From the NCBI GenBank assembly GCA_016706845.1, contig JADJIV010000004.1:47727-111726 (forward strand): a stretch of 64,000 nucleotides of DNA, given 5' to 3'. The stretch is from a bacterium. GTDB taxonomy: Bacteria; Krumholzibacteriota; Krumholzibacteriia; LZORAL124-64-63. Numbering within the stretch: the first letter of the stretch is position 1; every line of letters starts with the position of its first letter. A program made the position numbers and the translations under genes. Below, piece after piece: positions 7,279 through 28,008 of the stretch. The notes under the pieces were generated by a model, which saw only the letters and a list, made by a program, of their open reading frames with translations, was not told where the DNA came from and made no database searches.

Positions 7279-8217
7279 TCAAACCCCCGCAGCGTGCTCC
7301 ACGCGGATGCTGACCGAACCGTCCATCTCCGAGCGCAGATCGGGCTTGGCCACGGCTTCGACCTTGATCCAGTCGTCGGAGAGCAGCATGCACCCGACCA
7401 GGAACTCGGCCACGACCTTGGCCCGGTCCTGGGCCAGCCGCTTGTTCTCGGCCTGCACCACGACCTTCAGCGGCGAGTAGGGGTGGTCCTTGCGGATCTG
7501 GTCCGCCGCGCGGGTCAGCCAGCCGCGACCGCTGTCGCGCAGGAGCGTGCCGCCCTTCTGGAAGACCTCGTCGCCGGTGAACTCGAGCCGGCGCTCGTTC
7601 TTCTCGCGGTAGTCCACGGCCGGGATGCGGAAGCTGATGCCGGCGTAGTTGTAGGTGTTGGTCCCCTTGTCGGTGACGCTGAAGACGTAGCTGTAGGGGT
7701 AGCCCACCTGCAGCATCTCGTTCAGGTCGCCGCGGCCGTCCCAGGCGACCTGGCCCGGCGGCTGGCCCTTGTCCTCGAAGTGCCGGAACGGGGCGCCCCG
7801 GAAGTCGGTCACCGTCAGGGCCCAGCGGCGGGCCTGGTGCCCCTCGGGGTCCTCCGGGAAGAACGTCACCACCGGCGGCTGCGCCGGATCGCGCAGCCAG
7901 CAGTGCGGCGCCTGGTCGCTGTGCAGGTCGCGGGGGTTGTTCAGGAAGGGCTGCAGGCCCTCGACCGGGCTGATCTCCAGGACCGCCTCGTCGAAGTCCG
8001 TGAAGAACGTGTCGATGATCGCGGCGCTGAGCGCGACCTCGAACGTGCTCTTGACGATGTCCTGCAGGACCTGGTTCTCGGCCTCCACGACCATCTCGGG
8101 CAGGCCCTGGTCGGGGACCGTCTCCTGTTCCGTCACGGCGGGGGCCGGGGCGCTGCCGAACAGGAGGCAGGCGCCCGCGGCGATGATCCGGAATCCCCTG
8201 AAGTCGTTGCGAGTCAT
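7279..8217 (-). CDS. Secreted protein: TonB-box-like segment, FlgD-like Ig domain, degenerate OmpA-like C-domain
   Basis: AAAGGA RBS before ATG 8217; signal peptide; PEMVVEA; RRWALTVTDFRG..VAWDGRG..YSYVFSVTD; C-terminal LAQDRAKVVAEFL. Confidence 0.72.
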   Translation of the reverse strand: MTRNDFRGFRIIAAGACLLFGSAPAPAVTEQETVPDQGLPEMVVEAENQVLQDIVKSTFEVALSAAIIDTFFTDFDEAVLEISPVEGLQPFLNNPRDLHSDQAPHCWLRDPAQPPVVTFFPEDPEGHQARRWALTVTDFRGAPFRHFEDKGQPPGQVAWDGRGDLNEMLQVGYPYSYVFSVTDKGTNTYNYAGISFRIPAVDYREKNERRLEFTGDEVFQKGGTLLRDSGRGWLTRAADQIRKDHPYSPLKVVVQAENKRLAQDRAKVVAEFLVGCMLLSDDWIKVEAVAKPDLRSEMDGSVSIRVEHAAGV

Positions 8218-8271
8218 GATGTGTGTCCTTTGACTCAGGTTCATCGGCTATGGAGTTGTCGGGGTTCCGCC

Positions 8272-10025: not shown

Positions 10026-10453
10026 CGCGCCTCCTCCTTGCGGTTGAGGAGCGCGAGGCTGCTGGCGCCGCCGCCCTTGGCGGCGTCCATGACGTCGACC
10101 ACGTCCCCGAGCTTCACGAAGTCGCTCGGCACGATGACGACGGTCTTGTCGGTGCGCGCGGAGAGCGCGTCCGCCAGCCGCTGCTCGAGGTCGGCGAGCG
10201 CCACCGTCTCCCCGTTCATCTTGACGCCCTCGGGGGTCACGCTCACCAGCAGCATCTCCTCGTCCTGCTTCTCGCGCGTGGTCACCACGGTCTCGCTGGC
10301 TTCGGCGCGCGTCGCGTTGACCTGGATGCCGTTGCCCAGGATGGCCGGCATGGTCATCAGGAACACGATGATCAGCGTGGTCGTGACGTCCGCCAACGGG
10401 GTGATGTTGGGGGCGTTCTCCTCACGCATCTGCGATCGACTGGATCGTGCCAC
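10022..10453 (-). CDS. exbD: ExbD/TolR family protein
   Basis: PNITPLADVTTTLIIVFLMTMP (conserved TM Asp), VVIVPSDFVKLGDVVDVMDAAK; start GTG 10453 or ATG 10429. Confidence 0.88.
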   Translation of the reverse strand: MARSSRSQMREENAPNITPLADVTTTLIIVFLMTMPAILGNGIQVNATRAEASETVVTTREKQDEEMLLVSVTPEGVKMNGETVALADLEQRLADALSARTDKTVVIVPSDFVKLGDVVDVMDAAKGGGASSLALLNRKEEAR

Positions 10454-10467
10454 GTCGGCCTCGCTTC

Positions 10468-11193
10468 CTACCGGCCGACCGCGGCGGGTTCCTGGGCCGT
10501 GGTGACGACGGCGTCGCAAAGGGCGTTGACGTCGCGCTTGTCCGCCTTGGCGCGCGCGGCCGGGCGATCTTCCTGCCGGGCCATGCCGCGCAGCACGTTG
10601 AAGAACTCCTCGCGGACGTCCTCCAGCTCGATGATCCGGGTGCGGATGCGGCGCACGCAGAAGTTGAAGCAGATCGAGGCCGTGACGGCCACGATGATGC
10701 CGGCCGCCGTGGTCAGCAGGGCCTCGCTGACGCCCATGGCCACCACGGCGCTGCCGCCGGCGCCGGTGCGCGCGATGTCGGAGAAGGCGCGGATGATGCC
10801 GACCACCGTGCCGTAGAGCCCCAGCAGCGGGCCGATGTTGCTCATCGTGCCCAGCACGCTCAGGTTGCGCTCCATCTCCACCTGCTCCATCTCGATGGCG
10901 GTGTCGAAGCGCTGCTTGAGCTCGGAAGTGGGGATGTCGGCGTGCGGCAGGCACTGGCTGACGACGCGGGCGGCCGCGCCCTTCTGCTGGTCGCACCACT
11001 GGCCGGCGACCTTCATGTCCCCGCCCTTCATCTTCGCGGCCAGAGCCTTCATGAAGCCGCGCGAGTCGGATCGGGACCGGTAGAAGTACAGGCTGCGTTC
11101 GATGGCGTAGCCTACGGTGACCACGGAACAGATGATCAGCACGATCATCGACAGTGATCCGAAAAGAGTCTTGGTGAGCGACATCCCCATCAT
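10468..11193 (-). CDS. exbB: MotA/TolQ/ExbB proton channel family protein
   Basis: LSVLGTMSNIGPLLGLYGTVVGIIRAF and GVSEALLTTAAGIIVAV signatures. Confidence 0.92.
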   Translation of the reverse strand: MMGMSLTKTLFGSLSMIVLIICSVVTVGYAIERSLYFYRSRSDSRGFMKALAAKMKGGDMKVAGQWCDQQKGAAARVVSQCLPHADIPTSELKQRFDTAIEMEQVEMERNLSVLGTMSNIGPLLGLYGTVVGIIRAFSDIARTGAGGSAVVAMGVSEALLTTAAGIIVAVTASICFNFCVRRIRTRIIELEDVREEFFNVLRGMARQEDRPAARAKADKRDVNALCDAVVTTAQEPAAVGR

Positions 11194-11224: not shown

Positions 11225-14200
11225 CTAGTTGCCGGCTGACATGGCCTGGATCTCGGCGAGCCGGCCCTCGGCCATCGCCGTCCATTCCGGCTTGCCGTTG
11301 GTCTGCACGATCCGGTTGTAGGCCTGGACGGCGGCGTTCCAGTCCCCGCGCTCCTCGCTGATCTGGCCGATCTGGGCCAGGCTGGCGATGCGGTGCGGGG
11401 CCGCGGCGTCGGCGCCGCTGGCGGACATCTCGTAGCTGGCGACGGCCTGCTCGATGCGGTCGAGCTTCTCGTAGCACTGGCCCTGCCGGTAGCCGATCTC
11501 CTCGATGCCGGCTTCGCCCTTCTCCAGCGCCTTCTGGTAGGCCGCCGCGGCGTTCTCGTAGTCGCCGAGCTCGTCCTGGTACAGCGTGGCGATCTGGAAG
11601 GAGAGGCCCTTGGCCCGCTCGTCGGCGGGGTAGTCCGCCTGGAAGCGGATCAGCGCCCCGATGGCGGACGGCCAGTCCTCGAGCTCCTGGTAGCAGAGGC
11701 CGGCGTTGAACAGGGCCAGCGGCGAGTACTCGCCGGCGGGCATGGTGTCGACCAGGTACTCGTAGGCCTCCGCCGCCTCCTCGTACTGCTCCGTCTTGTA
11801 CAGGACGGTGCCCTCGCGGAAGCGCGACAGCCCGACCAGCTCGTGGTCGGGGTTCGTCTTCAGGAAGCTGCGGTAGCCGGCGAGCGCCATCGGCATCTGC
11901 TCCAAGCGGTAGTAGCTCTCGGCCAGGTAGAAGAGGGCGCCCGGGGCGCTCTCGCTGTCGGCGTAGTCCAGAGTGACCTTTTCGAACGCCTTGGCAGCGG
12001 CCTCGTAGTTTCCTTCGGCAAAGAGGTTTTGACCTTTAGTCCAGTAATAGTCCCCGGCCAGGGGGCTGTCCGGACGGTTGCCGAGGTACTCCTCCATGTC
12101 CTTGCCGCTGCGGTAGTAGCAGCTCTGGATGCCGAGTTCCGCGTCCTCGACGCGGGGGTCCTCCGGGAAGGCCTCGACGAAGGCCTGGAAGGCCGTGATC
12201 GCCGCCTGGTCCTGCTGCTGGTTGTAGTGGCAGTTGGCCAGGCCGAAGGCGGCGTCGGCGGCGTGCGGGCCGTCGGGGGCGCGGTTCTGCAGCGTCAGGT
12301 AGCTGGCGCGCGCCTGCTCGAAGCGGGCCAGTCCGAACTGCGTGTCGGCCAGGCGGTAGAGCGCCTCTTCGGCCTCGCCCGCCCGCGGGTAGTTGGTGAC
12401 CAGCTTCTGCCAGGCCTCCACCGCGTTCTCGTAGTACTGCAGGCGGTAGAAGCAGTCGCCCTGGTTCAGCAGCGCGGCCGCCACCTGCGGTCCCTCGGGG
12501 CTGCGCTCCAGGAACTTGGTGATCTCCTCCAGCGCCTTCTGGTAGTCGTGCTGGTTGAAGTACAGCGAGCCCAGGGCCAGCGAGTTGCCGCCCTCCTCGC
12601 TGTCGGCGTTCGCCAGCTCGAAGAGGAACTTCTCCTGCTCCTCGAGGGCCAGGTCGTACTCGCCGATCTGGCTGTAGCTGGCGACGAGGCCCCTGCAAGC
12701 TGGCCGCCGCCACCTCGCTGCGCGGGTAGCCCGTCAGCACCAGCCGGTACATGCCGCCCGCCTCGCGGAAGAGACCCTCGTGGTAGTAGGCCTCGCCGAG
12801 CTGGTAGTAGGTGCGGGCGCGCCAGGGGCTGGGCGTCGGCAGCAGGCGGTTGGCGATGAAGTGGTAGTTGGTGATCAGGCGGTCGTACTGCTCCAGCTTC
12901 AGGTAGGTGTCGGTGGCCAGGAACAGCGCCCGCTCGCCGGCGTCGGTGTTGACGTGCCGGTCCATGACGTTCTGGAATTCGCGCACCGCGAGGTCGTACT
13001 CCTGCAGCTCCTTGTGGGCGTAGCCCAGCAGAACCTGGACGCGGGCGGACAGCGGGTCGCCGGGGAAGATGTCCAGGAACTCGTGCGCCATCAGGACGGC
13101 CTGGGGGTAGTTCTTCTCGGCGATGTAGGCGTAGACGACCTTGTGCATGGCGGCGCTGGCCAGCTCCGAGTCCTGGTAGCCCTTGACCACTTCGGTGAAG
13201 GCGAAGATGGCGTGGCTGGTGCGGCCGAGCGCCATCCAGGCCGAGCCCATCAGGTAGTTGGCGGGCGCGCAGATCGGCTCGCCGCCGAGGTCCTTGCAGA
13301 GGTCCTCGAGCTTGTTCACGCACTCGTTGTACTCGCCGGAGCGGTAGTCCACGCAGGCCTGCTTGTAGCGGGCCATCGGCACGAACTTGCTCTCGGGGTA
13401 GCCCTCGAGGAAGTCGCGGTAGCTGCGCGCGGCGACCTTGTTCTGGTCGCTGTTGTAGAAGGCCTCCGCCACGCTGAACGCGGCGTCGTCGGCCAGCGGG
13501 CTCTCCGGGAAGAGCCGCAGGGCCTGGCGGTAGCGCTGCACGGCCAGGATGTACTGGCCCGTGGCCTCGAGGCAGCGGCCGAGGTAATAGAGGCCCAGGT
13601 CCGTGTCCACCTTCTCGAAATGCTGCGTGGCCTCCTCGTAGTCCTGCTCGACGTAGGCGAACAGGCCCAGGACGAACTGCACCTGCGGCAGCTTCTGGTA
13701 GCCGGGCCGGTCGGCCAGCAGCTGCTTGTAGGTCCGCTCCACGCTGCGCCAGTCCTGCAGCGAGGCCTGGGTCTGGCCCATGGCGAACAGGGCCTCGCCG
13801 GCCAGGAAGCTGTCGGCGCTCTGCTGCAGCAGCTGCGTGAAGGTCTCCAGGGCCCGCTCCCGCTTGCCCAGGTTGAACTGGCACTCGCCCCGGCGCAGCA
13901 GCGCGCTGCCCGCGAGGAACGGGTCGCCGCCCTTGAACTTCCCGACGCGGTCGTACTCGCGCAGCGCCGTGTCGTAGTCGCCGTTGCAGAAGTAGCACTC
14001 GGCCACCATGTACTGGGCGCGGGCCGCGCGGTCGGTCTTCTTGTAGTGCGTCAGGTACAGCTGGTACTGCTGCAGGGCGTTGCCCTTGTCCGCGTCGCGG
14101 GCGAAGGTGTCGCCGGCGGCGCGCCAGAGCGCGTCCTCGTTGGGGACCACGGCGTCGTCGTCGCCGGCGAAGGCCGGCGCGGCGGCGAAGGCCAGCAGGG

Positions 14201-14276
14201 CCAGCAGGGCCAGCAGGGCCGACAGATCCCGCAGGGCCGGTCGGGCCGGCCGCCGGGTGGCAGCAAGTCGTTTCAT
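11225..14276 (-). CDS. Secreted multi-TPR protein (CpoB/BamD-like repeats), about 1016 aa; one extra base at 12690-12693
   Basis: Signal peptide from ATG 14276; repeats such as AQYMVAECYF, FPESPLADDAAFSVAEAFY, YPRAGEAEEALYRLA. Removing one G from a GGGG run restores SLQGLVASYSQIGEY and joins the two track ORFs. Confidence 0.85.
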
Positions 14277-15607
14277 CGGTCGTCCTCTCGCGATTTCAGG
14301 CTCTCGGAACCGTCGACGTCGATGCGGATCGGAGTGCGGGTCCGGTTGCGGAAGCCCATGATCTCGACCTGGACCACGTGGTCCCACTCCTGGCCCAGGT
14401 CGTCCAGGATGACGACGGTGGCCCGGTAGACGCCGTCGCCCACCAGCCGGCCGTTCTCGTCCTCGCCGCCCCAGACCACGGCCTCCGGCGGCGGGCCCTC
14501 CTCGAAGATGCGGCGGACCAGCTCGCCCTGGTCGTTGCGGATCTCGACGCGCCACTCGGCCACCTCGCCGCGCAGCGCCGTGTCGACGCCGAAGGAGACG
14601 CTGCGGTCGTTGCCCGACGGGCTGAAGCGCAGGCGGTCGCTGTGGATCTCGACGCCGTCGGTGATGCCGAAGCGCATCGTGGCGCTGACCACCGTCGTGG
14701 AGCCGAGGTCGTGCGCGACGTGGGCGTAGTCGAGCTGCCAGTTCTGCCAGCGCACGCCGGCCCCGAAGCTGGTCTGGTCGCGCACCGTGTCGTAGCCGCC
14801 GCGCAGCACCAGCTGCCGCAACGGCCAGGCCTCGATGCCGCCCTGGAAGTCCAGGTCCATGAGGTCGGTGCGGACCAGGTCCGTCAGCACGAGCATGCGG
14901 TTGTTGAAGAAGTGCAGGCCGGCGCCGGCGCGCAGGGTCCTGGCCAGCTTCTCCGGCGTTTCCAGCAGCGTGATCTCCGGCTGCAGGGCGTTCTGGTAGG
15001 AGACGCCCAGGCTGAGCCGCCGCTCGGGGCGCAGGTAGAGGCCCACGTCGGCGCCGTAGCCCGAGCCGGTGAAGCCGCCCACGTCCTGGGAGATCGACTT
15101 CAGGGTGGCGCCCCAGCCGAAGCGGCTGCTGCCGCGGGCGTAGGTCAGCGCGAAGATCCCCTCCTTCTCTTGGAAGGTGTCGTTCATGTCGACCCACTCG
15201 GTCGCGCGCTCGAACTCGCCGCTGTTGGTGAAGGTGCCGCTGAAGGCGAAGGTGCCGCGGCCCTCGCTCGGCAGGCCGAACGCCACGTACGAGTAGCGGG
15301 TGTCGCCGAAGAGGGTGGCCCCCATCGCCGTCACCTCCATGGTGCGCAGCTGCGAGAGGGCGGCCGGGTTCCAGTACACGGTGGCGACGTCGCCGCCGAG
15401 CGCGCCGACGGCTCCGCCGAGGGCGAGGCTGCGGGCGCTGCTGCCGAAGCGCAGGAACGCGCCGGGCGCACCGCCGTCCTGGCCGGCGAGGACCGGTCCG
15501 GCAGCCAGCAGGGCCGCCAGGAGCAGGAGCGCGGGGTATCGTCTTTCCGCCGCGCCGAAGGCGCGTCGGGGGTGCTGGCGCTGGTTGTTGTCCGCGTCGC
15601 GCTTCAT
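14273..15607 (-). CDS. PorV/UPF0164-like outer-membrane beta-barrel fused to a C-terminal FlgD-like domain
   Basis: AGGAGAGG RBS; GAFLRFGSSARSLALGGA..DVATVYWNPAAL; amphipathic beta-strands ending LDYAHVAHDLGSTTVVSATMRFG; then FSPSGNDR..WRVEIRNDQGELVRRI..VVWGGEDENGRLVGDGVY. Confidence 0.8.
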   Translation of the reverse strand: MKRDADNNQRQHPRRAFGAAERRYPALLLLAALLAAGPVLAGQDGGAPGAFLRFGSSARSLALGGAVGALGGDVATVYWNPAALSQLRTMEVTAMGATLFGDTRYSYVAFGLPSEGRGTFAFSGTFTNSGEFERATEWVDMNDTFQEKEGIFALTYARGSSRFGWGATLKSISQDVGGFTGSGYGADVGLYLRPERRLSLGVSYQNALQPEITLLETPEKLARTLRAGAGLHFFNNRMLVLTDLVRTDLMDLDFQGGIEAWPLRQLVLRGGYDTVRDQTSFGAGVRWQNWQLDYAHVAHDLGSTTVVSATMRFGITDGVEIHSDRLRFSPSGNDRSVSFGVDTALRGEVAEWRVEIRNDQGELVRRIFEEGPPPEAVVWGGEDENGRLVGDGVYRATVVILDDLGQEWDHVVQVEIMGFRNRTRTPIRIDVDGSESLKSREDDR

Positions 15608-15615
15608 GGCCTCTC

Positions 15616-18600
15616 CTACTTCACCACCGCGATCTTGCGGCGGAAATCGAAGCCCTGGCCGGTCACCCGGCAGATGTAGCCGCCGTTGGCCACCACGTCG
15701 CCCTGGCCGTTGCGGCCGTCCCAGGCGAACTCGGTGGTCTGGTCGGCGGCGGCGTTCAGTTGGCGATTCAGCACGATCGTCCCGTAGAGGTCGTAGATCG
15801 TGATGTTCACCGTGCCGGCGGCCGTCGGTTTGAACAGGATCCGCGTCAGCTCGCGCACGGGGTTGAACGGGTTGGGCCGGTTGGTGATCTCCCGCCCCTC
15901 GTCCAGCGCCTGCGTGGTGTAGAGCACGATCTGCCGCAGCGCCTCCTTCACGCCCGTGTTCTCTTCGGCAAAGAACCGCAGGACATGAACGCCGGATTCG
16001 CCGGGGGCCAGCTCCTCGAGGCTGAAGGCCTCCTGGTAGGCGGTCAGGGGCTGCGCGCCGTCGGACTGGTCGACGTCGAAGCGGATCGTGGTGGTGGCCT
16101 CCGGGATGCCCGGGACCGCCGCCAGGGTGATCTGCGTGTCGGCGCTGACGTACCAGCCGTCGAGGTACTCGCTGGCGACGCCGGTGAAGGACGGGGTGGT
16201 GACCGGCGGCCCGGCCACGGCCAGCAGGACCTCCTCGGGGTCGAGGGCGTCCACGCCGGCCCGCAGCAGGACGTCGGTGGTGCCGAAGGCGGCGACGCGC
16301 AGGGTCGTCTCGGCGGTGCCGTCGCTGCCGGTCAGCAGGTGGACGGCGCCGGCGCGGGCCGAGCCGAGCGTGGCCTCGCCGGCGCGGACCTCGAAGGCGA
16401 CGGCGGCGCGGGGCGCCGGGTTGCCGCCCTCGTCGCGGGCCGCGACGCGGACGCGGATCTGCTGGTCGGGCCGCAGGACGCGGTCGAAGGGCGAGCCGTC
16501 CGACTCGAGCAGGGTCAGGGTGAAGGTCCGCGCCGGGGCCGCCAGCACGGTGATCAGGCGGCTGAGCACGTCGCCGCCGGCGGCGTCGGTCACGCGCAGG
16601 TAGATCGACTCGGCGCGGTCGTAGGCCTGGTCGTCGAGCAGCGCGCGGCCCTCGACGGTGGCGCCGTAGGTGTAGCGCAGCACGCCGGTCGGGACGAGCG
16701 CCGGGTCCGGGCGCACCGCGCCCGACCAGGCGTTGATCGCCGAGATGCTGAAGGTCTCGTCGTAACCGGTGACCAGCCGGCCCGTGGTCACGTCGACGCG
16801 CGTGACCGACAGCGGCCACGGCTCCCCGGCGACGACCGTGTCCGGGGCCGTCACCGCGTAGGTCACGCCCACCGGGATGACCGTCACCACGGGGCTGTCG
16901 GTCGAGCGGCCGCGCTCGTCGGAGACGCGGATGATGATGCGCTCGCTGACGCCGTAGCTCTGGGTCGCGATGTCGGCCGCGCCCTGCAGGAGCGTCCATT
17001 CCGTCACGCCCAGCTGCCCGTCGGGGGCGCCGAAGTCGTAGCGCAGCGCCTCCAGGGCGATGCGGTTGCCGGCCGGCACCGTGGCGCCGGTGGCGGGGTT
17101 GACCAGGCGCACGCCCACGCCGAAGCGCGAGGGCGGCCCCACGAAGGTCGTGTCCGGGACGCTGACCTGGTAGACGGCCTCCGCCACCGGGATGGTCACG
17201 TGGCCCTGGCCGGCCTCGGGGTGCTGGTTGTCGTCGGCGCTGAGGACCAGGTTGCCGGCGCCGTCGAGCACGACCCCGACCTGCCGGCGGCCGCCGATGA
17301 AGGGGGCGTGGTAGTCCGCGGGGTTCTGCCACGCGAACAGGTCGGGCTCCGAGCAGTCGAGCTCCAGGGCGCCGCCGTCCAGCGACGTGATCGGGTTGAA
17401 GAACTGGTCGACCGCGCGCAGCTCCACGACGAAGGGTTCGCCCGCCGTCTGGACGACCGGCGCGCCGGTCTTGCCGGTGCCGACCTCGGCGCCGGGCTCC
17501 GGCGTCTCGCCGGGCGCGACGATCTGCAGCTGCTTGAAGCCGTCGGCCGCGAGGCGGCAGCTGTTGGAGAAGCCCTCGTTGCCGTCGCCGTCGACGATGC
17601 GGAAGTAGACCTCCTCGGCCAGCGTGTAGGTCTGCTGGACGTCGGTGTGGCCGCCGGTCAGCATCTGCTGGACGGTGCCCAGCACGCCGCCGCCGGCCTC
17701 GCCGGTGGCGGCGCTCAGCACCGAGATCTGGATCAGGCCGCTGTGGGCCGCGACGCGCTCGCCGGTGTTGCTGTCGATCAGGTCGACCGCCAGCGGGAAG
17801 GTGGCCGGGCCGCCCACGATCGCTGCCGCGGGGGCCGCGACGTCGTAGTAGAGCCCGCCCGTCTGCATCGTCACGACGCTGCTCGTGGTCTGCCGCCCGA
17901 AGTCGTCGGACACGCGGATCCGCAGGTCCTCCAGGGCGCTGTAGCTCTGATCGCTGATGAACGAGACGCCGTTGATCAGGTAGACCTCCGTGGTGCCGAG
18001 CACGCCGTTGCCGGGCGCGAAATTCGCCCGCAGCGGCGTCAGGTCGACCCGGTGGCCGGCGCCGGCGACGGGTTCGCCGGTGTCGGGATCGACGAGCCGC
18101 ACCGTCATCGCGAAGCCCGGCATGCCGCCGGTCTGGGCCGCGGCGGGCACGGTGATCTGGTAGACGTAGGGCCGGCGCACCGGCACCGCGACGGTCTGTC
18201 CCGGCAGCTGCGGCGCGTCGAGGTCGCCCACGGTGACGCCCACCGCGCCCTCGGCCACCAGGAAGGCGTCGACGGCGCGGCTGCCGAGGAAGAACGGCGC
18301 GTCCTGCGGGTCGGGGTTGTCCGGCCAGGAGAACGAGCCGTCGGTGGCCGAGAGGTGGACCCGGCCGCCCGACGCGTCGCCGATCGGGTTCCAGTACTGG
18401 TCCACGGCCCGCACCACCATCGGGAACGGTTCGCCCGAACGCTGGGTGTCCGGCAGGGCCGACTTGCCCGTGGCGGCGAAGGCGGCCTCGCCCGGCCGCG
18501 CCGTCTCGCCCGGGGTCAGCAGCTGCAGCCGCTGATAGCCGGCGGGCCGGACGGTGAACAGGGGGCTGTCGCCGGCCAGGCCGCTGGGATCGAAGGCGCG

Positions 18601-21600
18601 CACCGCGAACTCGCCGGCCTGCGTGTAGGTCTGCTGGAAGCTGACCTGGCCGTCGACGAGGCGGCGCGAGGTCACGCCCACGGCGCCGGCGCCGAGCGTC
18701 CCGCCGCCGTCGACGACCGCGACGCTGAAGAAGCGGTCGTCGTCCACGAGCGATCCCGTCTCGGTGTCGCGCAGCCTCACCGTCACCGGGAAGGCCGCCG
18801 GCGGCCCCGCCACGGGCGCGGGCGTCGTGCCGACGACGACGTCGTACCACAGGCCGTTGGGATCCATGCGGATGATGTCGCTGTAGCCGAGGCGGCCGGA
18901 GGAGTCGCTCACCTCGATGACGATGCGGCTGGCGACGTCGTAGGCCTGGGCGGGGATCGCCACGACGCCGGCGGTCAGCTGGGCCTGCGTCGCCAGCAGC
19001 ACGCCCGGGGCGGGCTGCAGCGTCGGCGTCAGGGCGCGCAGGGTGACCTGGTTGTAGGCGTTGGTCATGACGGTCCCGGCCTCGTCCACCAGTTCCACGC
19101 TCATGGCGAAGGAGCTGGGCGGCCCGACGAACGCCGTGTCGGGGGTCGTGATCCGGTACTGGGCCCCGGCGGCGACCTGCACGACCACGTCGTGGCCCAG
19201 GATCTCCGCGTCGGTCAGGTCGTAGGCCGTGAGCGTGGCGTAGCCGAGGCTCGACAGCGCCACGGGGAACACGATCTCGCCGGCGGCGAGCGCCTGGCCG
19301 TTGTTCAGGGGATTGCCCGGCACGACGGAGCCCTCGTCGCTGCCGAGGTGGATGTTGTGCACGCTGTTGTCGACGCGGTTCCAGAAGCGGTCGACGGCGT
19401 CGACGGTCAGCGGGAACTGCAGCGTCGCGGTCTGCACCGCGGGCGTGCCGGTCTTGCCGTCGACCTCGGGGCCGCCGGGGTTCGGCGTCTCGCCGGGCGC
19501 GACGGCCAGCAGGCGGTAGAATTCGCCGGGATTCACGCGCACGGCGCTGGAGTCGCGGCGGGCGGACACCGCCAGGTCCCGCGCGCGCAGCGTCTGGGTC
19601 GTCGCCGTGCGGAAGGACAGGGCGAAGGCCGTGGAGCCGTCGGGCTCCAGCGGCACGTCGTTGGCCGTGACCAGGTCGGCGTAGCTGCTGGTCGACACCC
19701 TGACGATCGGGCTGGCGGGCACCGGGTTCCACCACGCGTCCAGGGCGGTCACCGCGGCGGTCACGTCCGCGCCGGCGACCACCGGCAGCGGCTCGCCGAA
19801 CTTGCCGGGCGCCTCGCCCGGCGTGGCCGTCTCGCCCGGCAGCAGGACCTGCAGGCCCGCGTACGCGCCGGGGAAGACGGTGAAGGGGTTGCTCTCGCCG
19901 GTGCGCCCGTAGACGTCGTCCACGGCCGACACGGTGATGCCCTGGCCGGCGCGCGTGATGCGCATGCTGCCGCGCCACACGCCCTGGTAGATGCCGGTGC
20001 CGTAGCCGTCGGCGAGGCTGACGCGCAGCGGCGCCAGCACGTCGCCGCCCACGTTCAGGCGCAGCGAGACGCTGTCGGTGAAGGTGCGGATGTGGTTGCC
20101 GTAGGCGTCGCGCGCGATCACGGTGAGGTTCGGCAGCCAGGCGCCGGCCTGGTGGTCGGGCACCGGCTCGAGGATGTCGGTCGGGTCGGGGTTGACGCCG
20201 TCGTTGACGCCGATCTCGAAGTGGTCGATCACGCCGGCCTCGACCGGGATGAGCGCCGACGCGGTGCGCGTGCTCACCGGGTCGGTGGCGGTGACCAGCT
20301 GCTGGTTCGGATCCGCCAGAGTCTCGAGCGTGACCGGGAAGACGCCGGTCCCGGACTGCAAGCTCTGGGGCGCCGCGGGCAGGGTCGCCTGGGGATCGGT
20401 GCTGGTGAACACCAGCGGGATCGGCAGGGACGGGCTCGTCGCCTCGATGGGGTTGTAGTAGTAGTCCGTGGCGATGACCTGGATGTTGAAGGGCGCGCCC
20501 GCGTCCTGGGGGGACGGGGTGCCGACCTTGCCGGGCGCGTAGATCGTGCCGGCGTCCAGGGTTTCGCCGGGCGCGATCACCATCAGCCGCTGGTAGACGT
20601 TCGGCGAGACGCGCAGGGGGCTCGAGAAGCTGTCCGCCTGGCCGCCGACGCTGGCCTGCAGCAGCTGGTCGCCGTGCGTCGCCATCAGGGCGCTGTAGAC
20701 GCCGGTGCCGTTCAGGGTGATGACCCCGCTCTCGATCAGGGTGCCGCCGCCGTCGAGCAGCAGCAGGTGGCCCGTCGGGCAGGTGATCGCGACGGTGCGC
20801 GAGCCGGACACGAGGTTGCCGTAGCGGTCCACGGCCCTGATCTCCAGGGATTCGATCATCTGCCCGGCGATGATCGGCGTGGGCAGGCCGATGTTGCCGC
20901 CGAAGGCCGGGTCGTTCAGGCCCGGGGTCCAGGTCTGGCCCGGCAGCGTGAACAGGACCTTCTCCATGGGGCCCGCGTTCACCTGGAAGTCGCCCGACAG
21001 CGTCACCACGCCGGTGTTGCTGTCGACGATCAGCCGGGCGCTGAACGCACGCTTGGTCACCTGCACCGAGGCGTTGAGCACGCCGTTGACGAAGTTGTTG
21101 CTGGTGGTGATCAGGTAGTCCGCGCTCTCGTCGACGGCGCCGATGCGGACCCGCATCGAGACGGGCCCGTTGTACGGGAACACGTTGTTGAACGAGTCGT
21201 AGGCGCGCACCCGGATCTGGAACGGGGTCGTGGTCGCCTGCACGGCGTTGGTGTCGAGCACGGCGTAGTCGAAGGAGAAGTGGTGGAGCCCGGCCGGGTT
21301 GACCTGGACGTTGGCCGAGCTCGAGGTCGAGATCGGGCCCGAGGCGGTGACCGTCACCTGGCGCAGGCCCGAGGTCATCAGCGTGGCCGACTGGTCCTGG
21401 ACCGTGTTGCTGCTCATGGCCCCGCCGGCGGGCAGCGCCACGCCGGGGGCCGCGTCGTTGGCGCTCCAGGCCAGCGTCGGGAAGGGGCCCGACGCCACGG
21501 GGTTCCAGTACTGGTCGGTCGCGTAGACGTCGATGCCGGTGAACGGGAAGCCCGAGATCTGGGCGATGGCCGTGCCGCTGCGGCCCGGGCTGACGCCCGG

Positions 21601-22407
21601 CGTCAGGGTCTGGCCCGGCAGCAGCAGGACGACGCGGTTCAGGGCCCCGGGATAGAGCGGCGCCACGAGGCCGCTGCCGGCCGCGGCCGCGGCCTGCGTC
21701 GGGTAGACGACAGTGTTCAGGGCGTTGACCGTGTTCTGCTGCAGCGCCGGGTCGGTGCCCTGGAAGACGACGTTGGCCGCGGCGACGCCGGCGACGAACG
21801 AGCCGCCGCCGATGGTGAGCGACGGGCCGGAGGTGAAGTGCCCGATCGCCGGCGACAGCACCACGTCGTCGTCGAAGTTGCGGACGGCCACGTTCATGAG
21901 GTCGCGGGCGGTGACCGTCAGCGCGACGTTCTGGCCGACGTACTTGTCGCCGGCCGGTACGCCGATCTCGAAGTGGTGGACGAAGTTGTAGCAGTTGATT
22001 TCAACCTGGGCGAACGGCACCGAACCGTCGTCCTGGTCCGCGACGCGCAACCGCACCGGCTGCCCGTCGTCCAGGAAATCGATCCCGGTGAAGATGCGCT
22101 CGCCGTTCTGCAGGTAAGCCGAAGCCGGCAGGGTCGCAGCCACGTCCGGCGAGGACAGCGCGGCGCGGATGAAGTCCGCCGCAGTGTCGGTCGTGCCGTC
22201 GGTGTTCACCGCCCGCACGAGCACGCTGAACTGCTCGTAGATGGTGACCGCGGGCCGACCGTCGACGATCTCGGGGTTGATCACCGTGATCTCGAGGTGG
22301 TCGAAGGCCAGGGCGGCCGCCGGCGCCAGGGCCAGCAGGCCCACAGCCAGGACGGTGGCGAACTTGGCGATGGCGATCCTGTTGCGCGTGCGCTCGTTCA
22401 TGGTCAT
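15616..22407 (-). CDS. Giant secreted multi-repeat (Ig-like) surface protein with T9SS/FlgD-like CTD, about 2260 aa
   Basis: Signal peptide ending ..ALAPAAALA; 7 copies of PG[EQ]TxxPG..GK.G.P..AVD.[YW]WN; 6 copies of Y.[VI]..P....G.P..F...V.L.D...G; CTD ITNRPNPFNP..TIYDLYG..FAWDGRNGQGDVVANGGYICRV..RRKIAVVK. Confidence 0.88.
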   Translation of the reverse strand: MTMNERTRNRIAIAKFATVLAVGLLALAPAAALAFDHLEITVINPEIVDGRPAVTIYEQFSVLVRAVNTDGTTDTAADFIRAALSSPDVAATLPASAYLQNGERIFTGIDFLDDGQPVRLRVADQDDGSVPFAQVEINCYNFVHHFEIGVPAGDKYVGQNVALTVTARDLMNVAVRNFDDDVVLSPAIGHFTSGPSLTIGGGSFVAGVAAANVVFQGTDPALQQNTVNALNTVVYPTQAAAAAGSGLVAPLYPGALNRVVLLLPGQTLTPGVSPGRSGTAIAQISGFPFTGIDVYATDQYWNPVASGPFPTLAWSANDAAPGVALPAGGAMSSNTVQDQSATLMTSGLRQVTVTASGPISTSSSANVQVNPAGLHHFSFDYAVLDTNAVQATTTPFQIRVRAYDSFNNVFPYNGPVSMRVRIGAVDESADYLITTSNNFVNGVLNASVQVTKRAFSARLIVDSNTGVVTLSGDFQVNAGPMEKVLFTLPGQTWTPGLNDPAFGGNIGLPTPIIAGQMIESLEIRAVDRYGNLVSGSRTVAITCPTGHLLLLDGGGTLIESGVITLNGTGVYSALMATHGDQLLQASVGGQADSFSSPLRVSPNVYQRLMVIAPGETLDAGTIYAPGKVGTPSPQDAGAPFNIQVIATDYYYNPIEATSPSLPIPLVFTSTDPQATLPAAPQSLQSGTGVFPVTLETLADPNQQLVTATDPVSTRTASALIPVEAGVIDHFEIGVNDGVNPDPTDILEPVPDHQAGAWLPNLTVIARDAYGNHIRTFTDSVSLRLNVGGDVLAPLRVSLADGYGTGIYQGVWRGSMRITRAGQGITVSAVDDVYGRTGESNPFTVFPGAYAGLQVLLPGETATPGEAPGKFGEPLPVVAGADVTAAVTALDAWWNPVPASPIVRVSTSSYADLVTANDVPLEPDGSTAFALSFRTATTQTLRARDLAVSARRDSSAVRVNPGEFYRLLAVAPGETPNPGGPEVDGKTGTPAVQTATLQFPLTVDAVDRFWNRVDNSVHNIHLGSDEGSVVPGNPLNNGQALAAGEIVFPVALSSLGYATLTAYDLTDAEILGHDVVVQVAAGAQYRITTPDTAFVGPPSSFAMSVELVDEAGTVMTNAYNQVTLRALTPTLQPAPGVLLATQAQLTAGVVAIPAQAYDVASRIVIEVSDSSGRLGYSDIIRMDPNGLWYDVVVGTTPAPVAGPPAAFPVTVRLRDTETGSLVDDDRFFSVAVVDGGGTLGAGAVGVTSRRLVDGQVSFQQTYTQAGEFAVRAFDPSGLAGDSPLFTVRPAGYQRLQLLTPGETARPGEAAFAATGKSALPDTQRSGEPFPMVVRAVDQYWNPIGDASGGRVHLSATDGSFSWPDNPDPQDAPFFLGSRAVDAFLVAEGAVGVTVGDLDAPQLPGQTVAVPVRRPYVYQITVPAAAQTGGMPGFAMTVRLVDPDTGEPVAGAGHRVDLTPLRANFAPGNGVLGTTEVYLINGVSFISDQSYSALEDLRIRVSDDFGRQTTSSVVTMQTGGLYYDVAAPAAAIVGGPATFPLAVDLIDSNTGERVAAHSGLIQISVLSAATGEAGGGVLGTVQQMLTGGHTDVQQTYTLAEEVYFRIVDGDGNEGFSNSCRLAADGFKQLQIVAPGETPEPGAEVGTGKTGAPVVQTAGEPFVVELRAVDQFFNPITSLDGGALELDCSEPDLFAWQNPADYHAPFIGGRRQVGVVLDGAGNLVLSADDNQHPEAGQGHVTIPVAEAVYQVSVPDTTFVGPPSRFGVGVRLVNPATGATVPAGNRIALEALRYDFGAPDGQLGVTEWTLLQGAADIATQSYGVSERIIIRVSDERGRSTDSPVVTVIPVGVTYAVTAPDTVVAGEPWPLSVTRVDVTTGRLVTGYDETFSISAINAWSGAVRPDPALVPTGVLRYTYGATVEGRALLDDQAYDRAESIYLRVTDAAGGDVLSRLITVLAAPARTFTLTLLESDGSPFDRVLRPDQQIRVRVAARDEGGNPAPRAAVAFEVRAGEATLGSARAGAVHLLTGSDGTAETTLRVAAFGTTDVLLRAGVDALDPEEVLLAVAGPPVTTPSFTGVASEYLDGWYVSADTQITLAAVPGIPEATTTIRFDVDQSDGAQPLTAYQEAFSLEELAPGESGVHVLRFFAEENTGVKEALRQIVLYTTQALDEGREITNRPNPFNPVRELTRILFKPTAAGTVNITIYDLYGTIVLNRQLNAAADQTTEFAWDGRNGQGDVVANGGYICRVTGQGFDFRRKIAVVK

Positions 22408-22512
22408 CCCGCCGTGGAAGGGATCCTGGAACGTCCGGGGCGCGGACGGCCGTGCAGAATGCAAAGCCGGACAGGGAGATCCGGCGTTGCGGCACGGGCC
22501 AGCGGGTCCAGG

Positions 22513-22529
22513 TGCAAGCGATATGCCAC
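22513..22529 (-). promoter_or_regulatory. Sigma54 (-24/-12) promoter candidate for the giant-protein/PorV/TonB operon
   Basis: TGGCATATCGCTTGCA on the minus strand: GG-N10-GC spacing with a TTGCA -12 box, about 105 bp upstream of the ATG. Confidence 0.55.
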
Positions 22530-22911
22530 AGGTCGGGGCGGGCGACGTTTACGTAACGCGCTTTTGCACATGGGATTGCAGATGTCCCGCCAGGACGCGG
22601 CAAGCGGCGCGTGGATGAAGGGTTGGCGTCCGGAAGCGGCGGTTGCTGAGGGCCCGGGACCGGGCGGACGACTGCGGGAGGACGGACCCCGAACGCGATA
22701 CCGCTGTTCATTGTCGGGTGGCGGGCCGGTCCGGACAGGGCAATTCAGGTCTCCGGCGCCGGCGATCGTGCAGGATCGGTGCGCCGCGGATTCAGGGCGG
22801 GATCCGACCGATTGGTGGTTGTTCGCAGTCGCCGCGTGTGATTATGTTCCCCGGCGTCGGCGTCCCGCGCGGGGTCGCCACCGGAGGGCCGTACGATCGG
22901 GAGACAACACC

Positions 22912-24279: not shown

Positions 24280-26199
24280 CTACTTCACCAGCATGAGCTT
24301 GCGGACCTGCAGCACGTCGCCGCCGATGCGCAGACGGGCGAAGTAGGTGCCGCTGGCCACCTGCTGGCCCGCGTTGTTGGTGCCGTCCCAGGTCACGACG
24401 CGCTCGCCGCTGCCCTGGAGCCGCTCGTTGACGAGCGTGGAGACCAGCTCGCCGCGGATGTTGTAGACGTTCAGCTGGACCAGGTTGTCCCGCGTCAGGA
24501 CGAAGCGGATCTCCGTCTTGGGGTTGAACGGGTTCGGCTTGATGCTCGAGAACCCGCCCGCGGGCAGGATCTGGGGCAGGTCGCCCTCGACGGCCGTCGC
24601 GCCGACGGTGATGTCCTCGTCGCGCAGCGGGACCAGCTGGAACTCGCCGAAGGCGTAGTCCATGAAGCCCTTCACGGTGACCACGTCGCCGATGACCGGC
24701 GCGTACACCATGTTGAAGGCGGCGTTGACGACCAGCGAGTCGGCCCGCGCGCCGGTGTCGGAGACCAGGAACTCGCTGTACAGGGCCGAGCCCAGGGTGT
24801 CGACCACGGTCGAGGAGAACGTGCTCACCAGGACGCTCTCGTAGGCCTCGCCCAGGTAGCCGCCGGGCGACGTGTCGTCGGCCAGGACGGCGGTGTGCGC
24901 CTGGTTGTAGGCGGGCAGCGCGTTCTCGAAGGAGATGTACTCGATCGCCGTGCCGTTGTGCGGGTTCATCTCGGTCAGGCCGAAGTACTCCTCGATGTAG
25001 CCGCCGACCTGGACCTCGTCGCCGGGCAGCAGGAAGTTGGCGGCGGTGCCCTCGTAGCAGAGCAGGCCGCTGAAGGTGCCCGAGCCGTCCTGCATGATGA
25101 ACTTGCTGGTCGAGCCGGCGTCGCCGGTGCCGGCCGTCACGATGCCCTGCACGTTGACAACGCGGCCCGTGAACGGCGAGTTCTGCGGGGTGGTCGCGGG
25201 GTCGACGTACTGCACGTCGTGGATGGACGTGATGCCCACCGCGACCTCGTACCAGCCGGCCGGGGCGTCGCCCGGGTTCAGCGAGATGTTGCCGTTGCCG
25301 TCCAGGGCGCGGACGTAGAAGTCGACCTGACGGCCCAGGAAGCCGCCGGGGATGGTCGCCGACCACGTGCTGCCGCTGGTGTTGGTCATCGGGGTGCTCA
25401 GGAAGACGCCGGTGCTGTCGCCGGAGTCGTCGCGGTAGTAGAGGGCCGCGGAGGTCACGGCGACGTCGTCGGTGATCGTCGCGGTGACGGTGATCGGGTC
25501 GCTGGCCAGCGGGGTCCAGTCGGCGCAGTTGACGGCGTCGACGATCGGGCCCGAGCCCTCGATGAGGTCGCTCTGGCGGCGGGGCTTCAGCTCCATGATG
25601 CCGCCCGTGAAGTTGACCAGCGGGGCGATGATCCGGTAGCTGTCGCCGATCGCGACGCCGCCCGTGTTGATCCCCGTGTCGGTGTCGACGTAGACGATGA
25701 TGGTGTCGGTGCCGGAGTGCATCTTGAACTGGTTGGAGGCCACCGCCGTCGAGATCGTGCCGGAGATCGAGACGAACTTGCCGACGTTTTCGTAGTCGGA
25801 CTTCGCCTGGGCGATGGTCATCGTGACGGGCGTCGGAGCGGCCTCGGCGCCGAGGAAGGTGACCGTGGGCGCCGGGGAGAGCTGGATCTCGCCCTGGAAG
25901 ATGCCGACGGTGCCGGTGACCGAGACCCGGTCGCCGTAGGTCAGCGGGGGAGCCGCCGAGTTGAAGAAGGCGATGCCGTTGCCGGAATCGTCGATGATGT
26001 AGTGGGAGCCGGCGTTGTAGGTGCCCTTCAGAACGTAGACCCGGCCCTCGACCGTCTGGGTCGTGCCGTTGTAGGGGCTGGCCGGGGCGCCGGTCGTCGG
26101 ATTGTAGTACTGGATGTCGTCGATCGTCTGGGCGGCGGCCAAGCCGGCCACGCACACGACGACGGCGAGCGCCACGGCGCTCTGAATCGATCGCTTCAT
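24280..26199 (-). CDS. Secreted multi-OB-fold protein with FlgD/T9SS-like CTD
   Basis: ATG 26199 with AGGAG RBS; signal peptide; TIDDIQY..SPYNG and SIHDVQY..SPFTGRVVNVQGIVTA modules; CTD KPNPFNPKTEIRF..VYNIRGELV..WDGTNNAGQQVASGTYFARL..VRKLMLVK. Confidence 0.88.
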   Translation of the reverse strand: MKRSIQSAVALAVVVCVAGLAAAQTIDDIQYYNPTTGAPASPYNGTTQTVEGRVYVLKGTYNAGSHYIIDDSGNGIAFFNSAAPPLTYGDRVSVTGTVGIFQGEIQLSPAPTVTFLGAEAAPTPVTMTIAQAKSDYENVGKFVSISGTISTAVASNQFKMHSGTDTIIVYVDTDTGINTGGVAIGDSYRIIAPLVNFTGGIMELKPRRQSDLIEGSGPIVDAVNCADWTPLASDPITVTATITDDVAVTSAALYYRDDSGDSTGVFLSTPMTNTSGSTWSATIPGGFLGRQVDFYVRALDGNGNISLNPGDAPAGWYEVAVGITSIHDVQYVDPATTPQNSPFTGRVVNVQGIVTAGTGDAGSTSKFIMQDGSGTFSGLLCYEGTAANFLLPGDEVQVGGYIEEYFGLTEMNPHNGTAIEYISFENALPAYNQAHTAVLADDTSPGGYLGEAYESVLVSTFSSTVVDTLGSALYSEFLVSDTGARADSLVVNAAFNMVYAPVIGDVVTVKGFMDYAFGEFQLVPLRDEDITVGATAVEGDLPQILPAGGFSSIKPNPFNPKTEIRFVLTRDNLVQLNVYNIRGELVSTLVNERLQGSGERVVTWDGTNNAGQQVASGTYFARLRIGGDVLQVRKLMLVK

Positions 26200-26330
26200 A
26201 CTGTCTGTCTCCTCTGCTTCGGACACACGTTTCCCGCGCAGGGCACGAGTTGGGAGTCGGATCCAGGCGTCAAGTTCAGGATTATGAAGCGTGGAAAGTG
26301 GATCGCGGCCCATGACTCAGTGCACGCAAG

Positions 26331-26432: not shown

Positions 26433-28008
26433 TCAGGGCGCCAGGAGGGACCGGCCGGTCATGGCGGCCGGCCGGGGCAGCCCGAGAAGGTCGAGCATGG
26501 TCGGGGCGATGTCCCTCAGGCCGGCGTCGTTCCGCACCGTCAGGGCGTCGTCCCGGCCGGCGAACTCCCGGCCGACCACCACGAAGGGCACGTCGTTCAG
26601 GGTGTGGTTGGTCAGGACGCGCCCGTCCGGGGCGATCATCTCCTCGCAGTTGCCGTGGTCGGCGGTCAGCAGCAAAACGCCGTCGCGTTCCAGCACCGCG
26701 GGCACGATCCTCGCGAGCAGCCCGTCCAGCGTCCGCACCGCCGCGATCGCCGCCTCCAGCACGCCGGTGTGGCCCACCATGTCGCCGTTGGCGAAGTTCA
26801 CCACGATCACTTCGTGCCGGCCGGCCGCCAGCGCGTCCAGGACGATCGCGGCGACTTCCGGCGCGCTCATCCCGGGCTGCAGGTCGTAGGTGGCGACCTT
26901 CGGCGAGGGCACCAGGCGGCGGTCCTCGCCCGCGAAGGGCTCCTCGCGCCCGCCGTTGAAGAAGTAGGTCACGTGGGCGTACTTCTCGGTCTCGGCGGTG
27001 CGCAGGTTGGTCACCCCGTGCGCGGCGAAGACGTCGGCCAGCAGGTCGCGGGGCGCCTCGGGATCGAAGACGACCGGCAGGCCCAGGCTCTCGTCGTAGA
27101 CCGTCATGCAGAGGTAGTCCACGACGGGGCGCAACGGCCGCGGGAAACCGTCGAAGCCGTCCACGTTGAACGCCCAGGTCAGCTCGCGGGCCCGGTCGGA
27201 GCGGAAATTCCAGAAGAAGACGGCGTCGCCGTCGCGGACCGTCGCCAGCGGGGCGCCGCCGCCGTCCACGATCACGGTCGGCAGCACGAACTCGTCGGTG
27301 ACCCCCGCCTCGTAGGAACGGCGGATCGCCGACGCGGCGTCGGGCGACGTCTCCCCCTCGCCGTGGACCATGGCCCGCCAGGCCTTCTCGACGCGGTCCC
27401 AGCGCTTGTCGCGGTCCATGCCGTAGTAGCGGCCGCCGACGGTCGCGATCTTGCCGGCGCCGATGCCGGCCAGTGCGGCCTCCAGGTCCTGCACATACTG
27501 CAAGCCGCCGTGGGGATCGGTGTCGCGCCCGTCCAGGAAGGCGTGGACGTAGATCTTCGGCCACGCCCTGGCGGGCCGCGATCCGCACGATCTCCACGAG
27601 GTGGTCGACGTGGGAGTGGACGCCGCCGTCGGAGACCAGGCCCGGCAGGTGCAGCCGCCCTCCGCGCTCCTTGAGCCCCGCGACGAGGCGCCGCCAGGCG
27701 GGGTGCTCGGCGAAGGCGCCGCTCGCGAGGCTGCGCGTCACCAGATTGAGGTCCTGGTCGATGACGCGGCCCGAGCCGATCGTCAGGTGCCCCACTTCGC
27801 TGTTGCCCATCTGGCCCGCGGGCAGCCCGACCTCGAGCCCGTGGCAGTGCAGGGTCGTGTGCGGGTAGCGGGCCAGCAGGCTCTCGTAGAACACCGGCTC
27901 GGCCAGCGCGATGGCGTTGCCGTGCTCGGAGCCCGGCCCGCGGCGCCAGCCGAAGCCGTCCAGGATGCACAGGACCAGCGGGGTATGGGGGCGGCGGCGG
28001 TCGGTCAT
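26433..28008 (-). CDS. gpmI: 2,3-bisphosphoglycerate-independent phosphoglycerate mutase; one extra base near 27560
   Basis: LCILDGFG, GQMGNSEVGHLTIGSGR, SDGGVHSH, then in the shifted frame HAFLDGRDT, GRYYGMDRDKRW, AETEKYAHVTYFFNGG, TADHGNCE. Confidence 0.9.

Follow-up and report, generated by a model that had tools for sequence, protein, structure and literature searches.

We have studied a very large gene and its downstream neighbors in a stretch of 64,000 nucleotides from a Krumholzibacteriota genome (contig JADJIV010000004.1, positions 47,727 to 111,726), which we call the window. The gene encodes a chain of repeated immunoglobulin-like (Ig-like) domains, the poly-Ig protein. The reading that we favor is that this is a surface fibre, probably exported by a type IX secretion system (T9SS) and retained through its C-terminal domain (CTD) by a cognate PorV/PorQ-like barrel encoded next to it. 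We infer a location on the cell surface, binding of the CTD by the barrel, coupling to a motor encoded in the same gene block and a role in adhesion or spacing; for the coupling, the argument is solely the conserved linkage of the genes. Fully extended, at about 4 nm for each Ig domain, the fibre would be some 75-80 nm long.

The gene lies on the minus strand, and residues are numbered throughout on its 2,263-aa form.

15616..22407, minus: poly-Ig gene, 2,263 aa, with its stop codon at 15616-15618.

The region from 14.3 to 23.7 kb holds three overlapping open reading frames (ORFs), each of more than 1,900 aa; long shadow ORFs are to be expected because the GC content of the window is about 70%. 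Among the three, only the minus-strand frame 15616..22548 bears a coding signature, with GC contents at the three codon positions (GC1/GC2/GC3) of 0.68/0.51/0.97, and it translates to a normal protein. The plus-strand ORF of 2,654 aa is a shadow frame, giving nonsense rich in R, G, A and D except over its final ~270 codons, where a separate methyltransferase gene lies. The minus-strand ORF of 1,901 aa is likewise a shadow, coding only at its 14273-15607 end, where the barrel gene lies. An earlier note on this DNA, made from its letters, had taken 15616-22407 to be a genuine gene, and this is borne out by the GC3 of 0.97, by the translation and by a database protein of 2,261 aa that is 100% identical. 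Public gene calls give that length by starting at ATG 22401, two codons downstream of ATG 22407. The predicted product has a mass of 233 kDa and is acidic, with an isoelectric point of 4.5.

The poly-Ig protein comprises a signal peptide, the repeat domains C0-C-A-C-A-A-C-A-A-B-B-A-B-B-A-B-B, a Big_1-like domain, a domain X, a linker and the CTD. The segments are placed as follows.

22309..22407, minus: Sec-type signal peptide, residues 1-33 (MTMNERTRNRIAIAKFATVLAVGLLALAPAAALA, followed by FDH), read from the translation.
19174..22299, minus: N-terminal half with nine Ig-like domains, C0 to A5, from AlphaFold2 (AF2; residues 24-1078), hhalign and a scan with hidden Markov models of the modules. 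C0 covers residues 37-143, C1 144-252, A1 253-373, C2 374-478, A2 479-602, A3 603-725, C3 726-846, A4 847-960 and A5 961-1078.
16537..19173, minus: rest of the A-B-B super-repeat (A5 lies in the N-terminal half), from self-BLAST, hhalign and AF2. B1 covers residues 1079-1184, B2 1185-1288, A6 1289-1412, B3 1413-1517, B4 1518-1621, A7 1622-1743, B5 1744-1846 and B6 1847-1957.
16243..16536, minus: Big_1-like Ig domain (domain 18), residues 1958-2055, scoring 25.3 bits with PF02369 against a cut-off of 34.9.
15907..16242, minus: orphan beta domain X, residues 2056-2167, folded in the AF2 model and unrelated to A, B and C.
15868..15906, minus: disordered linker, residues 2168-2180, the sole internal segment with a predicted local distance difference test score (pLDDT) below 50.
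15619..15867, minus: FlgD_ig or T9SS type-A-like sorting domain, residues 2181-2263, from PF13860, TIGR04183 and alignment with the CTD of PorU.

There are seven A modules, six B, and three C plus the divergent C0, in agreement with the seven, six and about four copies counted before. PG[EQ]T heads module A at residues 264, 489, 613, 857, 971, 1299 and 1632; an extra PGQT at residue 1402 is the end of module A6 and heads no module. Module B is marked by Y.[VI]..P at 1084, 1416, 1521, 1746 and 1850, with a sixth copy at 1185-1288 that does not carry the exact motif, and module C by [DH]HF.[IF] at 144, 375 and 728, with a divergent DHLEI at residue 36. The C-terminal half had been described as alternating A and B. 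Both are indeed present there, but the order is really A-B-B three times (A5-B1-B2, A6-B3-B4 and A7-B5-B6).

The repeats are clearly related to one another, well outside what chance would give. Self-BLAST of the whole protein returned the identity match only. BLASTP of segments gave 71 off-diagonal pairs, with E down to 2e-22, and a super-repeat of ~330 aa in three copies (residues 963-1290, 1291-1622 and 1623-1955). For a domain matrix, the alignment of 95 orthologues was cut by domain and all pieces were compared with hhalign, giving E values between repeats down to 1e-36. A1-A7 are linked mutually with a probability of 96-100%, B1-B6 with 99-100% and C1-C3 with 73-95%. The N-terminal C0 has weak links to the remaining domains, and the Big_1-like domain at 1958-2055 is weakly linked to A and C (60-87% probability); in some orthologues, precomputed annotation places this domain above the cut-off of PF02369. 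Domain X and the CTD have no kin among the other domains by hhalign, X reaching at most 3% with any of them.

The fold was modelled with AF2 as two halves, each with an alignment of 47 orthologue sequences. The mean pLDDT was 89.3 for the N-terminal half and 88.3 for the C-terminal half, with predicted template modelling scores of 0.46 and 0.37, low values that are consistent with beads on a string. The predicted secondary structure is all-beta, and blocks of seven to nine strands coincide with the domain boundaries; the models thus describe some 19 tandem Ig-like beta-sandwich domains. Foldseek against the PDB matched long strings of Ig-like domains alone, at 7-13% identity and template modelling scores (TM-scores) of 0.05-0.23: Nup210, proteins of the ciliary central apparatus, mastigoneme, the macroglobulin (MG) domain arrays of complement and alpha-2-macroglobulin, and GhpA of Aureispira. 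Modelling by segments, which the earlier note had proposed as a check, therefore returned all-beta Ig-like beads in both halves. The fold class of the modules as modelled is Ig-like, and no specific relative emerges.

The modules lie outside the curated families. In a scan of the whole protein against Pfam, for which a 2025 copy served as reference, only FlgD_ig scored above threshold, with Big_1, Invasin_D3 and MG2 below it. None of the 51 module copies examined from three species (21 A, 18 B and 12 C) was significant against any Pfam family, and a sequence-profile search of the PDB with modules A, B and C gave nothing significant (best FUS1p, E = 0.005, and an S-layer protein, 0.03). The modules are thus not all members of known Big or invasin families, since 0/51 copies match Pfam and no PDB sequence matches. 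PF28243 is annotated (precomputed) on five orthologues (P0016, P0017, P0020, P0021 and P0024) and is absent from the 2025 copy; part of the poly-Ig protein may thus fall under a model of recent date.

A profile of module A matches 11,517 representatives of protein clusters formed at 50% identity at E≤1e-3, and 5,845 at 1e-10, the module occurring as many as 37 times in one protein and the proteins being as long as 7,699 aa. Matches to the full module, including its PGET..PG..GK.G leader, have no Pfam annotation. Those to the core only (profile positions 26-118) include Big_1, Big_3_5 and MBG proteins. By this pattern module A belongs to the Big_1-like Ig superfamily, as a large branch of it that is uncatalogued. 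Judged by their profiles, modules A and C are remote relatives of Big_1, and module B is more isolated than A. The suggestion that the repeats may be unclassified Ig-like families therefore holds as regards the Ig-like fold and the place outside curated families, but A and C are not wholly new, being kin of Big_1.

The leader of module A, PGET..PG....GK.G.P, spans ~25 residues that are mostly non-strand (e.g., residues 264-290, window 21538-21618). Six columns are invariant across 21 A copies: P12, G13, G19 and G23 of the leader, and D46 and N50 of the core. The leader could serve in the packing of loops, or it could bind a ligand or a metal. We rejected an intramolecular isopeptide bond through the Lys of GK.G because this conserved residue is replaced by Arg in A1 and by Asn in A2. 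The protein is also not an alpha-2-macroglobulin: it has no C.EQ thioester motif, no A2M or thioester-containing (TED) domains and no lipobox Cys, and its MG2 match is below threshold. The claim that no catalytic motif is visible is upheld, in that no catalytic domain is found by Pfam, NCBIfam or fold.

The two ends of the protein carry the targeting signals. The signal peptide has a basic n-region, a hydrophobic core and a cleavage site between ALA and F, with no lipobox Cys. The C-terminal 83 residues match PF13860 (FlgD_ig) with E = 1.2e-9 and 38.4 bits against a cut-off of 27, and they align with the CTDs of PorU and of two T9SS-dependent proteases. We searched the genome of the window (3.37 Mb, 84% complete) for SprA, PorU and CTD tails, and the wider family for GldL and GldM. 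SprA is present with a score above its cut-off. A PorU-like gene, cut by a contig end, scores 289 bits against a cut-off of 420, and ~48 further ORFs match the same CTD positions of PorU. The presence of SprA, the PorU-like gene and the ~48 tailed ORFs points to T9SS-type export with many clients, the poly-Ig protein among them. The models for GldL and GldM (TIGR03513 and TIGR03517) gave no match in 31 genomes of the family and none in the controls either, so that this is no proof of absence. Two genes upstream of the fibre, at 24280-26313 on the minus strand, lies another secreted protein with a FlgD_ig/T9SS-like tail, of 677 aa and with a weak match to an oligonucleotide/oligosaccharide-binding (OB) fold.

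The poly-Ig gene heads a block of eight genes on one strand, in the order fibre, barrel, tetratricopeptide-repeat (TPR) protein, ExbB, ExbD, ExbD, TonB and OmpA-like protein, with intergenic distances of -28 to +41 nt at defined starts.

14273..15607, minus: candidate outer-membrane barrel, 444 aa, with a C-terminal FlgD_ig; it starts 8 nt past the fibre stop.
11225..14147, minus: TPR protein of ~1,000 aa, matching TPR families, split by a 1-nt frameshift near 12690.
10468-11193, minus: ExbB (PF01618, 6.5e-26).
10022-10426, minus: ExbD (PF02472, 1.4e-18 and 2.7e-18 for the two ExbD).
9615-10025, minus: second ExbD (PF02472, as above).
8272-9642, minus: TonB (TonB_C, 4e-14).
7279..8247, minus: final gene of the block, whose product of 322 aa has a weak likeness to OmpA (E = 0.0035 with PF00691, short of its cut-off).

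The product of the barrel gene has a signal peptide, and its FlgD_ig scores 6.9e-7. Against models of FadL-like 14-strand barrels, PF19572 and PF11751 included, it gives only weak matches: to Toluene_X (1e-4 to 0.014), UPF0164 (0.001-0.14), PorV (0.068) and PorP_SprF (0.077), and also to FadL and DUF5723; weak barrel-family matches together with FlgD_ig recur in the barrel proteins of four lineages. The TPR gene is a single ORF in relatives. In the window, tblastn with the orthologue from locus L001 leaves frame -2 for frame -3 at residue 516, where there is a G-run (caggggcctc), and the frameshift is either an assembly indel or the mark of a pseudogene. A protein of 294-315 aa occupies the last-gene position in L001, L002 and L004. 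The last gene of the block in the window gave no match to FlgD_ig. The genome has seven MotA/ExbB genes and five TonB_C genes in total, with at least four other ExbB/TonB loci, and the motor linked to the fibre is thus not its sole TonB system.

The protein is strongly conserved among its relatives, whose taxa we name as labelled by the sources. More than 100 are full-length, and they are Krumholzibacteria wherever named. In an alignment that is nearly gap-free, 95 orthologues from Krumholzibacteria metagenome-assembled genomes (MAGs) have 2,231-2,321 aa and are 41-94% identical; conservation is even along the full length, and the repeat number is fixed within the orthogroup. This full-length form, the giant, occurs in 52/151 genomes of the phylum, in 28/69 genera, and as one intact copy where the assembly is unfragmented. 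In one genome (G057:C4:48070-52325), giant and barrel are in several pieces with an in-frame stop, and the system may be decaying there.

The barrel follows the giant closely. Among the 151 genomes, barrel matches of at least 37% identity (when intact, E≤1e-82) are confined to those with the giant. These strong orthologues adjoin it within ~100 nt of its 3' end. Genomes without the giant have only barrel paralogues of 27-35% identity. Several giant-bearing genomes hold a second, non-adjacent paralogue of 31-36% identity, and from such sequence matches two systems of this kind may coexist in one genome.

All eight genes recur in this order, amid unrelated flanks, in L001 and L002/L003, which stand for two Krumholzibacteria lineages, and in L004, which comes from an Elusimicrobiota MAG. 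Some kilobases upstream of the fibre, both the window (26433-27737, minus) and L004 (7009-8580) have a cofactor-independent phosphoglycerate mutase gene; this shared neighbor may be left over from an old synteny or may be there by chance. The Elusimicrobiota protein, of 1,892 aa, is one A-B-B unit shorter than the 2,250-aa form, so that the length of the lead protein steps by module between deep lineages and is fixed within them. A relative of 1,825 aa likewise has a barrel gene downstream.

Three genomes that do not have the giant carry short forms of 1,011-1,048 aa, roughly A-(C)-A-C-A-A-B-Big1-CTD, encoded by the following lead genes.

L017, 8517-11552: short-form lead gene.
L018, 8670-11816: short-form lead gene.
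L019, 8885-11947: short-form lead gene.

In all three the short form is followed by a barrel paralogue and then by a TPR ORF of ~1,030 aa. The variant cluster that was scanned against Pfam, L017, has a TonB_C gene downstream, and the ORF of its last gene, which overlaps the TonB frame, matches FlgD_ig at E = 5.5e-4, below the Pfam cut-off. Upstream of this cluster (L017 4947-7661, genome G098) is a PilY1-like beta-propeller protein of 904 aa.

These results suggest how the fibre might be made and held. The poly-Ig chain would cross the inner membrane by Sec, and its CTD would deliver it to the SprA/Sov translocon of the genome. The PorV/PorQ-family barrel encoded 8 nt downstream would then keep the fibre on the cell surface, an anchoring that we model on PorZ-PorQ, PorU-PorV and SprB-SprF of Bacteroidota. 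The TPR protein, ExbB, the two ExbD, the long TonB and the OmpA-like protein would form an envelope-spanning motor driven by the proton motive force, with its scaffold, acting on the barrel to help export, anchor or move the fibre. The protein had been proposed to be an extended adhesin, S-layer or sheath subunit. The data favor an extended, non-catalytic and secreted protein, but sequence alone cannot choose among the three. The T9SS-type CTD, the near-invariant length, the gap-free conservation and the conserved operon speak for a defined assembly in the envelope and tell against an adhesin that stands alone and varies.

Several observations weigh against a T9SS-exported fibre held by its barrel. 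The CTD falls below the T9SS cut-offs, with 22.1 against 23 bits for TIGR04183 and 13.3 against 27 for PF18962, and the assignment of the barrel to a PorV/FadL/UPF0164/PorP-like family draws only on matches below threshold. The whole-chain TM-scores of Foldseek, at 0.05-0.23, indicate the type of domain as modelled and not specific homology. FlgD_ig also occurs on the barrel, and seemingly on the last gene of L017 (E 5.5e-4), where it cannot be an export signal, so that the domain could be an assembly module and the fibre could be periplasmic. Lastly, TPR-ExbB-ExbD-ExbD-TonB blocks are common by themselves, and the linkage with the fibre could therefore reflect co-regulation and not a physical machine.

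Two other accounts start from these last points. The poly-Ig protein might be a periplasmic or under-membrane scaffold in an envelope-spanning system of Tol-Pal type, with FlgD_ig domains as mutual docking modules and with the motor, TPR and OmpA-like proteins tethering the outer membrane. The FlgD_ig on the barrel, which is not a secretion signal there, and its weak counterpart on the L017 last-gene ORF (E 5.5e-4) would fit such docking, as would an OmpA-like last gene beside a TolQRA-like gene set. Conservation of length and sequence is as strong as in a machine part, the fold matches include the MG-domain arrays of periplasmic bacterial alpha-2-macroglobulins, and the eight-gene block is found in the Elusimicrobiota MAG as well. 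We nevertheless think the scaffold unlikely. A FlgD_ig at the extreme C-terminus behind a disordered linker is the typical layout of T9SS cargo, ~48 other proteins of the genome share the tail alongside SprA and a PorU-like gene, and there is neither lipobox nor thioester motif; an extended rod of 19 domains would, moreover, be several times as long as the periplasm is wide. If instead the linkage is without functional meaning, the protein would be a stand-alone adhesin or spacer, a T9SS cargo that happens to lie beside a housekeeping TonB operon. There are many poly-Ig proteins that carry a secretion tail, the ~11,500 protein clusters with module A comprise many architectures, and TPR-ExbB-ExbD-ExbD-TonB blocks are widespread. 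Such independence is hard to reconcile with a gene order kept across two phyla amid unrelated flanks, with fibre and barrel orthologue co-occurring side by side and with short-form lead proteins that retain the same partners. The genome has at least four other ExbB/TonB loci, and the repeat number is fixed in the orthogroup, unlike that of typical variable adhesins. We accordingly give this account a low probability.

A subunit of an S-layer or sheath, tiling the cell surface as a lattice, seems very improbable. The protein is acidic, large, non-catalytic and all-beta, all its domains are evenly conserved, and module A matches a solved bacterial 'surface layer protein' (4uj7/4uj8), with E values of 0.03-0.13 that are not significant. 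But no anchoring module is found by Pfam or NCBIfam, and nothing suggests self-assembly. S-layer proteins usually diverge fast, whereas the poly-Ig protein stays 41-63% identical across families, and it is present in only 28/69 genera. A more ambitious view takes the eight-gene block as a self-contained, undescribed trans-envelope machine, driven by protons, that would export, tension or move its cis-encoded fibre; we regard this as possible and rather doubtful. With the TPR protein as scaffold and the OmpA-like protein as tie to peptidoglycan, the ExbB/ExbD/ExbD-TonB motor would work on the PorV-like barrel by way of the barrel's FlgD_ig as a handle, and the length of the fibre would be set in A-B-B 'quanta', at about 1,020, 1,890 or 2,250 aa. 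In function, such a machine would be the equivalent of GldLM-SprF-SprB in Krumholzibacteriota, where GldL and GldM are undetected (the controls being silent too), with the block also in Elusimicrobiota.

The three Ig-like repeat families are absent from the 2025 copy of Pfam, module A alone occurring in ~11,500 clusters, and defining A, B and C would annotate thousands of giant 'hypothetical' proteins of uncultured bacteria. To us, the strict pairing of a length-quantised poly-Ig protein with a barrel, a giant TPR protein and ExbBD-TonB in at least two phyla weighs more than the new families. The block is a candidate for the anchoring or energising of T9SS-type cargo outside Bacteroidota. Should the coupling to the motor be true, it would add a task other than nutrient import to those of TonB-type motors; should it be false, the poly-Ig protein would still be a well-defined marker surface protein of a poorly known phylum. 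Among the papers listed for Krumholzibacteriota, none concerns the poly-Ig protein by title or abstract, and we found none that joins 'FlgD Ig-like' with T9SS. The titles and abstracts found for T9SS with ExbB/ExbD/TonB/PorV contain no description of the eight-gene operon.

It is instructive to compare the system with those already known. The Big_1 arrays of invasin and intimin (PF02369 and PF09134) are similarly rigid tandem Ig rods, with domain 18 Big_1-like here and A and C as remote kin. The poly-Ig protein, however, has neither an N-terminal beta-barrel/LysM anchor nor a C-type-lectin tip by Pfam, NCBIfam and AF2 secondary structure, and A, B and C fall below all Big-family thresholds. 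GhpA, the grappling hook of Aureispira (9flp and 9fly), is a very long Ig-like chain from Bacteroidota that is exported by T9SS. Few bacterial proteins match the fold of the C-terminal half as well as GhpA does (E 3.6e-20 and 1.4e-17; ~10% identity, TM-scores 0.12-0.16). Several chains of GhpA make up a hook whose tip is specialised, whereas the poly-Ig protein shows no sign of a tip domain or an oligomerisation element. In the Agl-Glt system of Myxococcus, a TolQR/ExbBD-type motor, large TPR and TonB-like proteins, barrels and a surface adhesin make up one trans-envelope machine; gene set and order differ, and the likeness is one of analogy only.

SprB is a giant repetitive surface protein exported by T9SS with a barrel gene, SprF, directly downstream, and here too a giant repetitive protein is followed directly by a barrel gene. 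SprB has a type B CTD, a PorP/SprF barrel and the GldLM motor. In our system the tail is type-A/FlgD_ig-like, the barrel looks more PorV/FadL/UPF0164-like, and the operon itself encodes the motor, a canonical set of ExbB-ExbD-ExbD-TonB. One study describes SprB, in the gliding and T9SS of Flavobacterium johnsoniae, as dependent on a proton motor of MotA/ExbB type (PMC8986121). We saw no sequence similarity between SprB and the poly-Ig protein. In the T9SS of Porphyromonas, PorZ-PorQ and PorU-PorV are pairs in which the CTD is kept and the protein is held at the surface by a 14-strand barrel of the PorV family. Those proteins are small, enzymatic or accessory, and their barrels have no FlgD_ig of their own and are not co-encoded with a TonB motor. 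It is nonetheless their anchoring logic that we propose for the poly-Ig protein and its barrel, applied here to a fibre of 19 domains.

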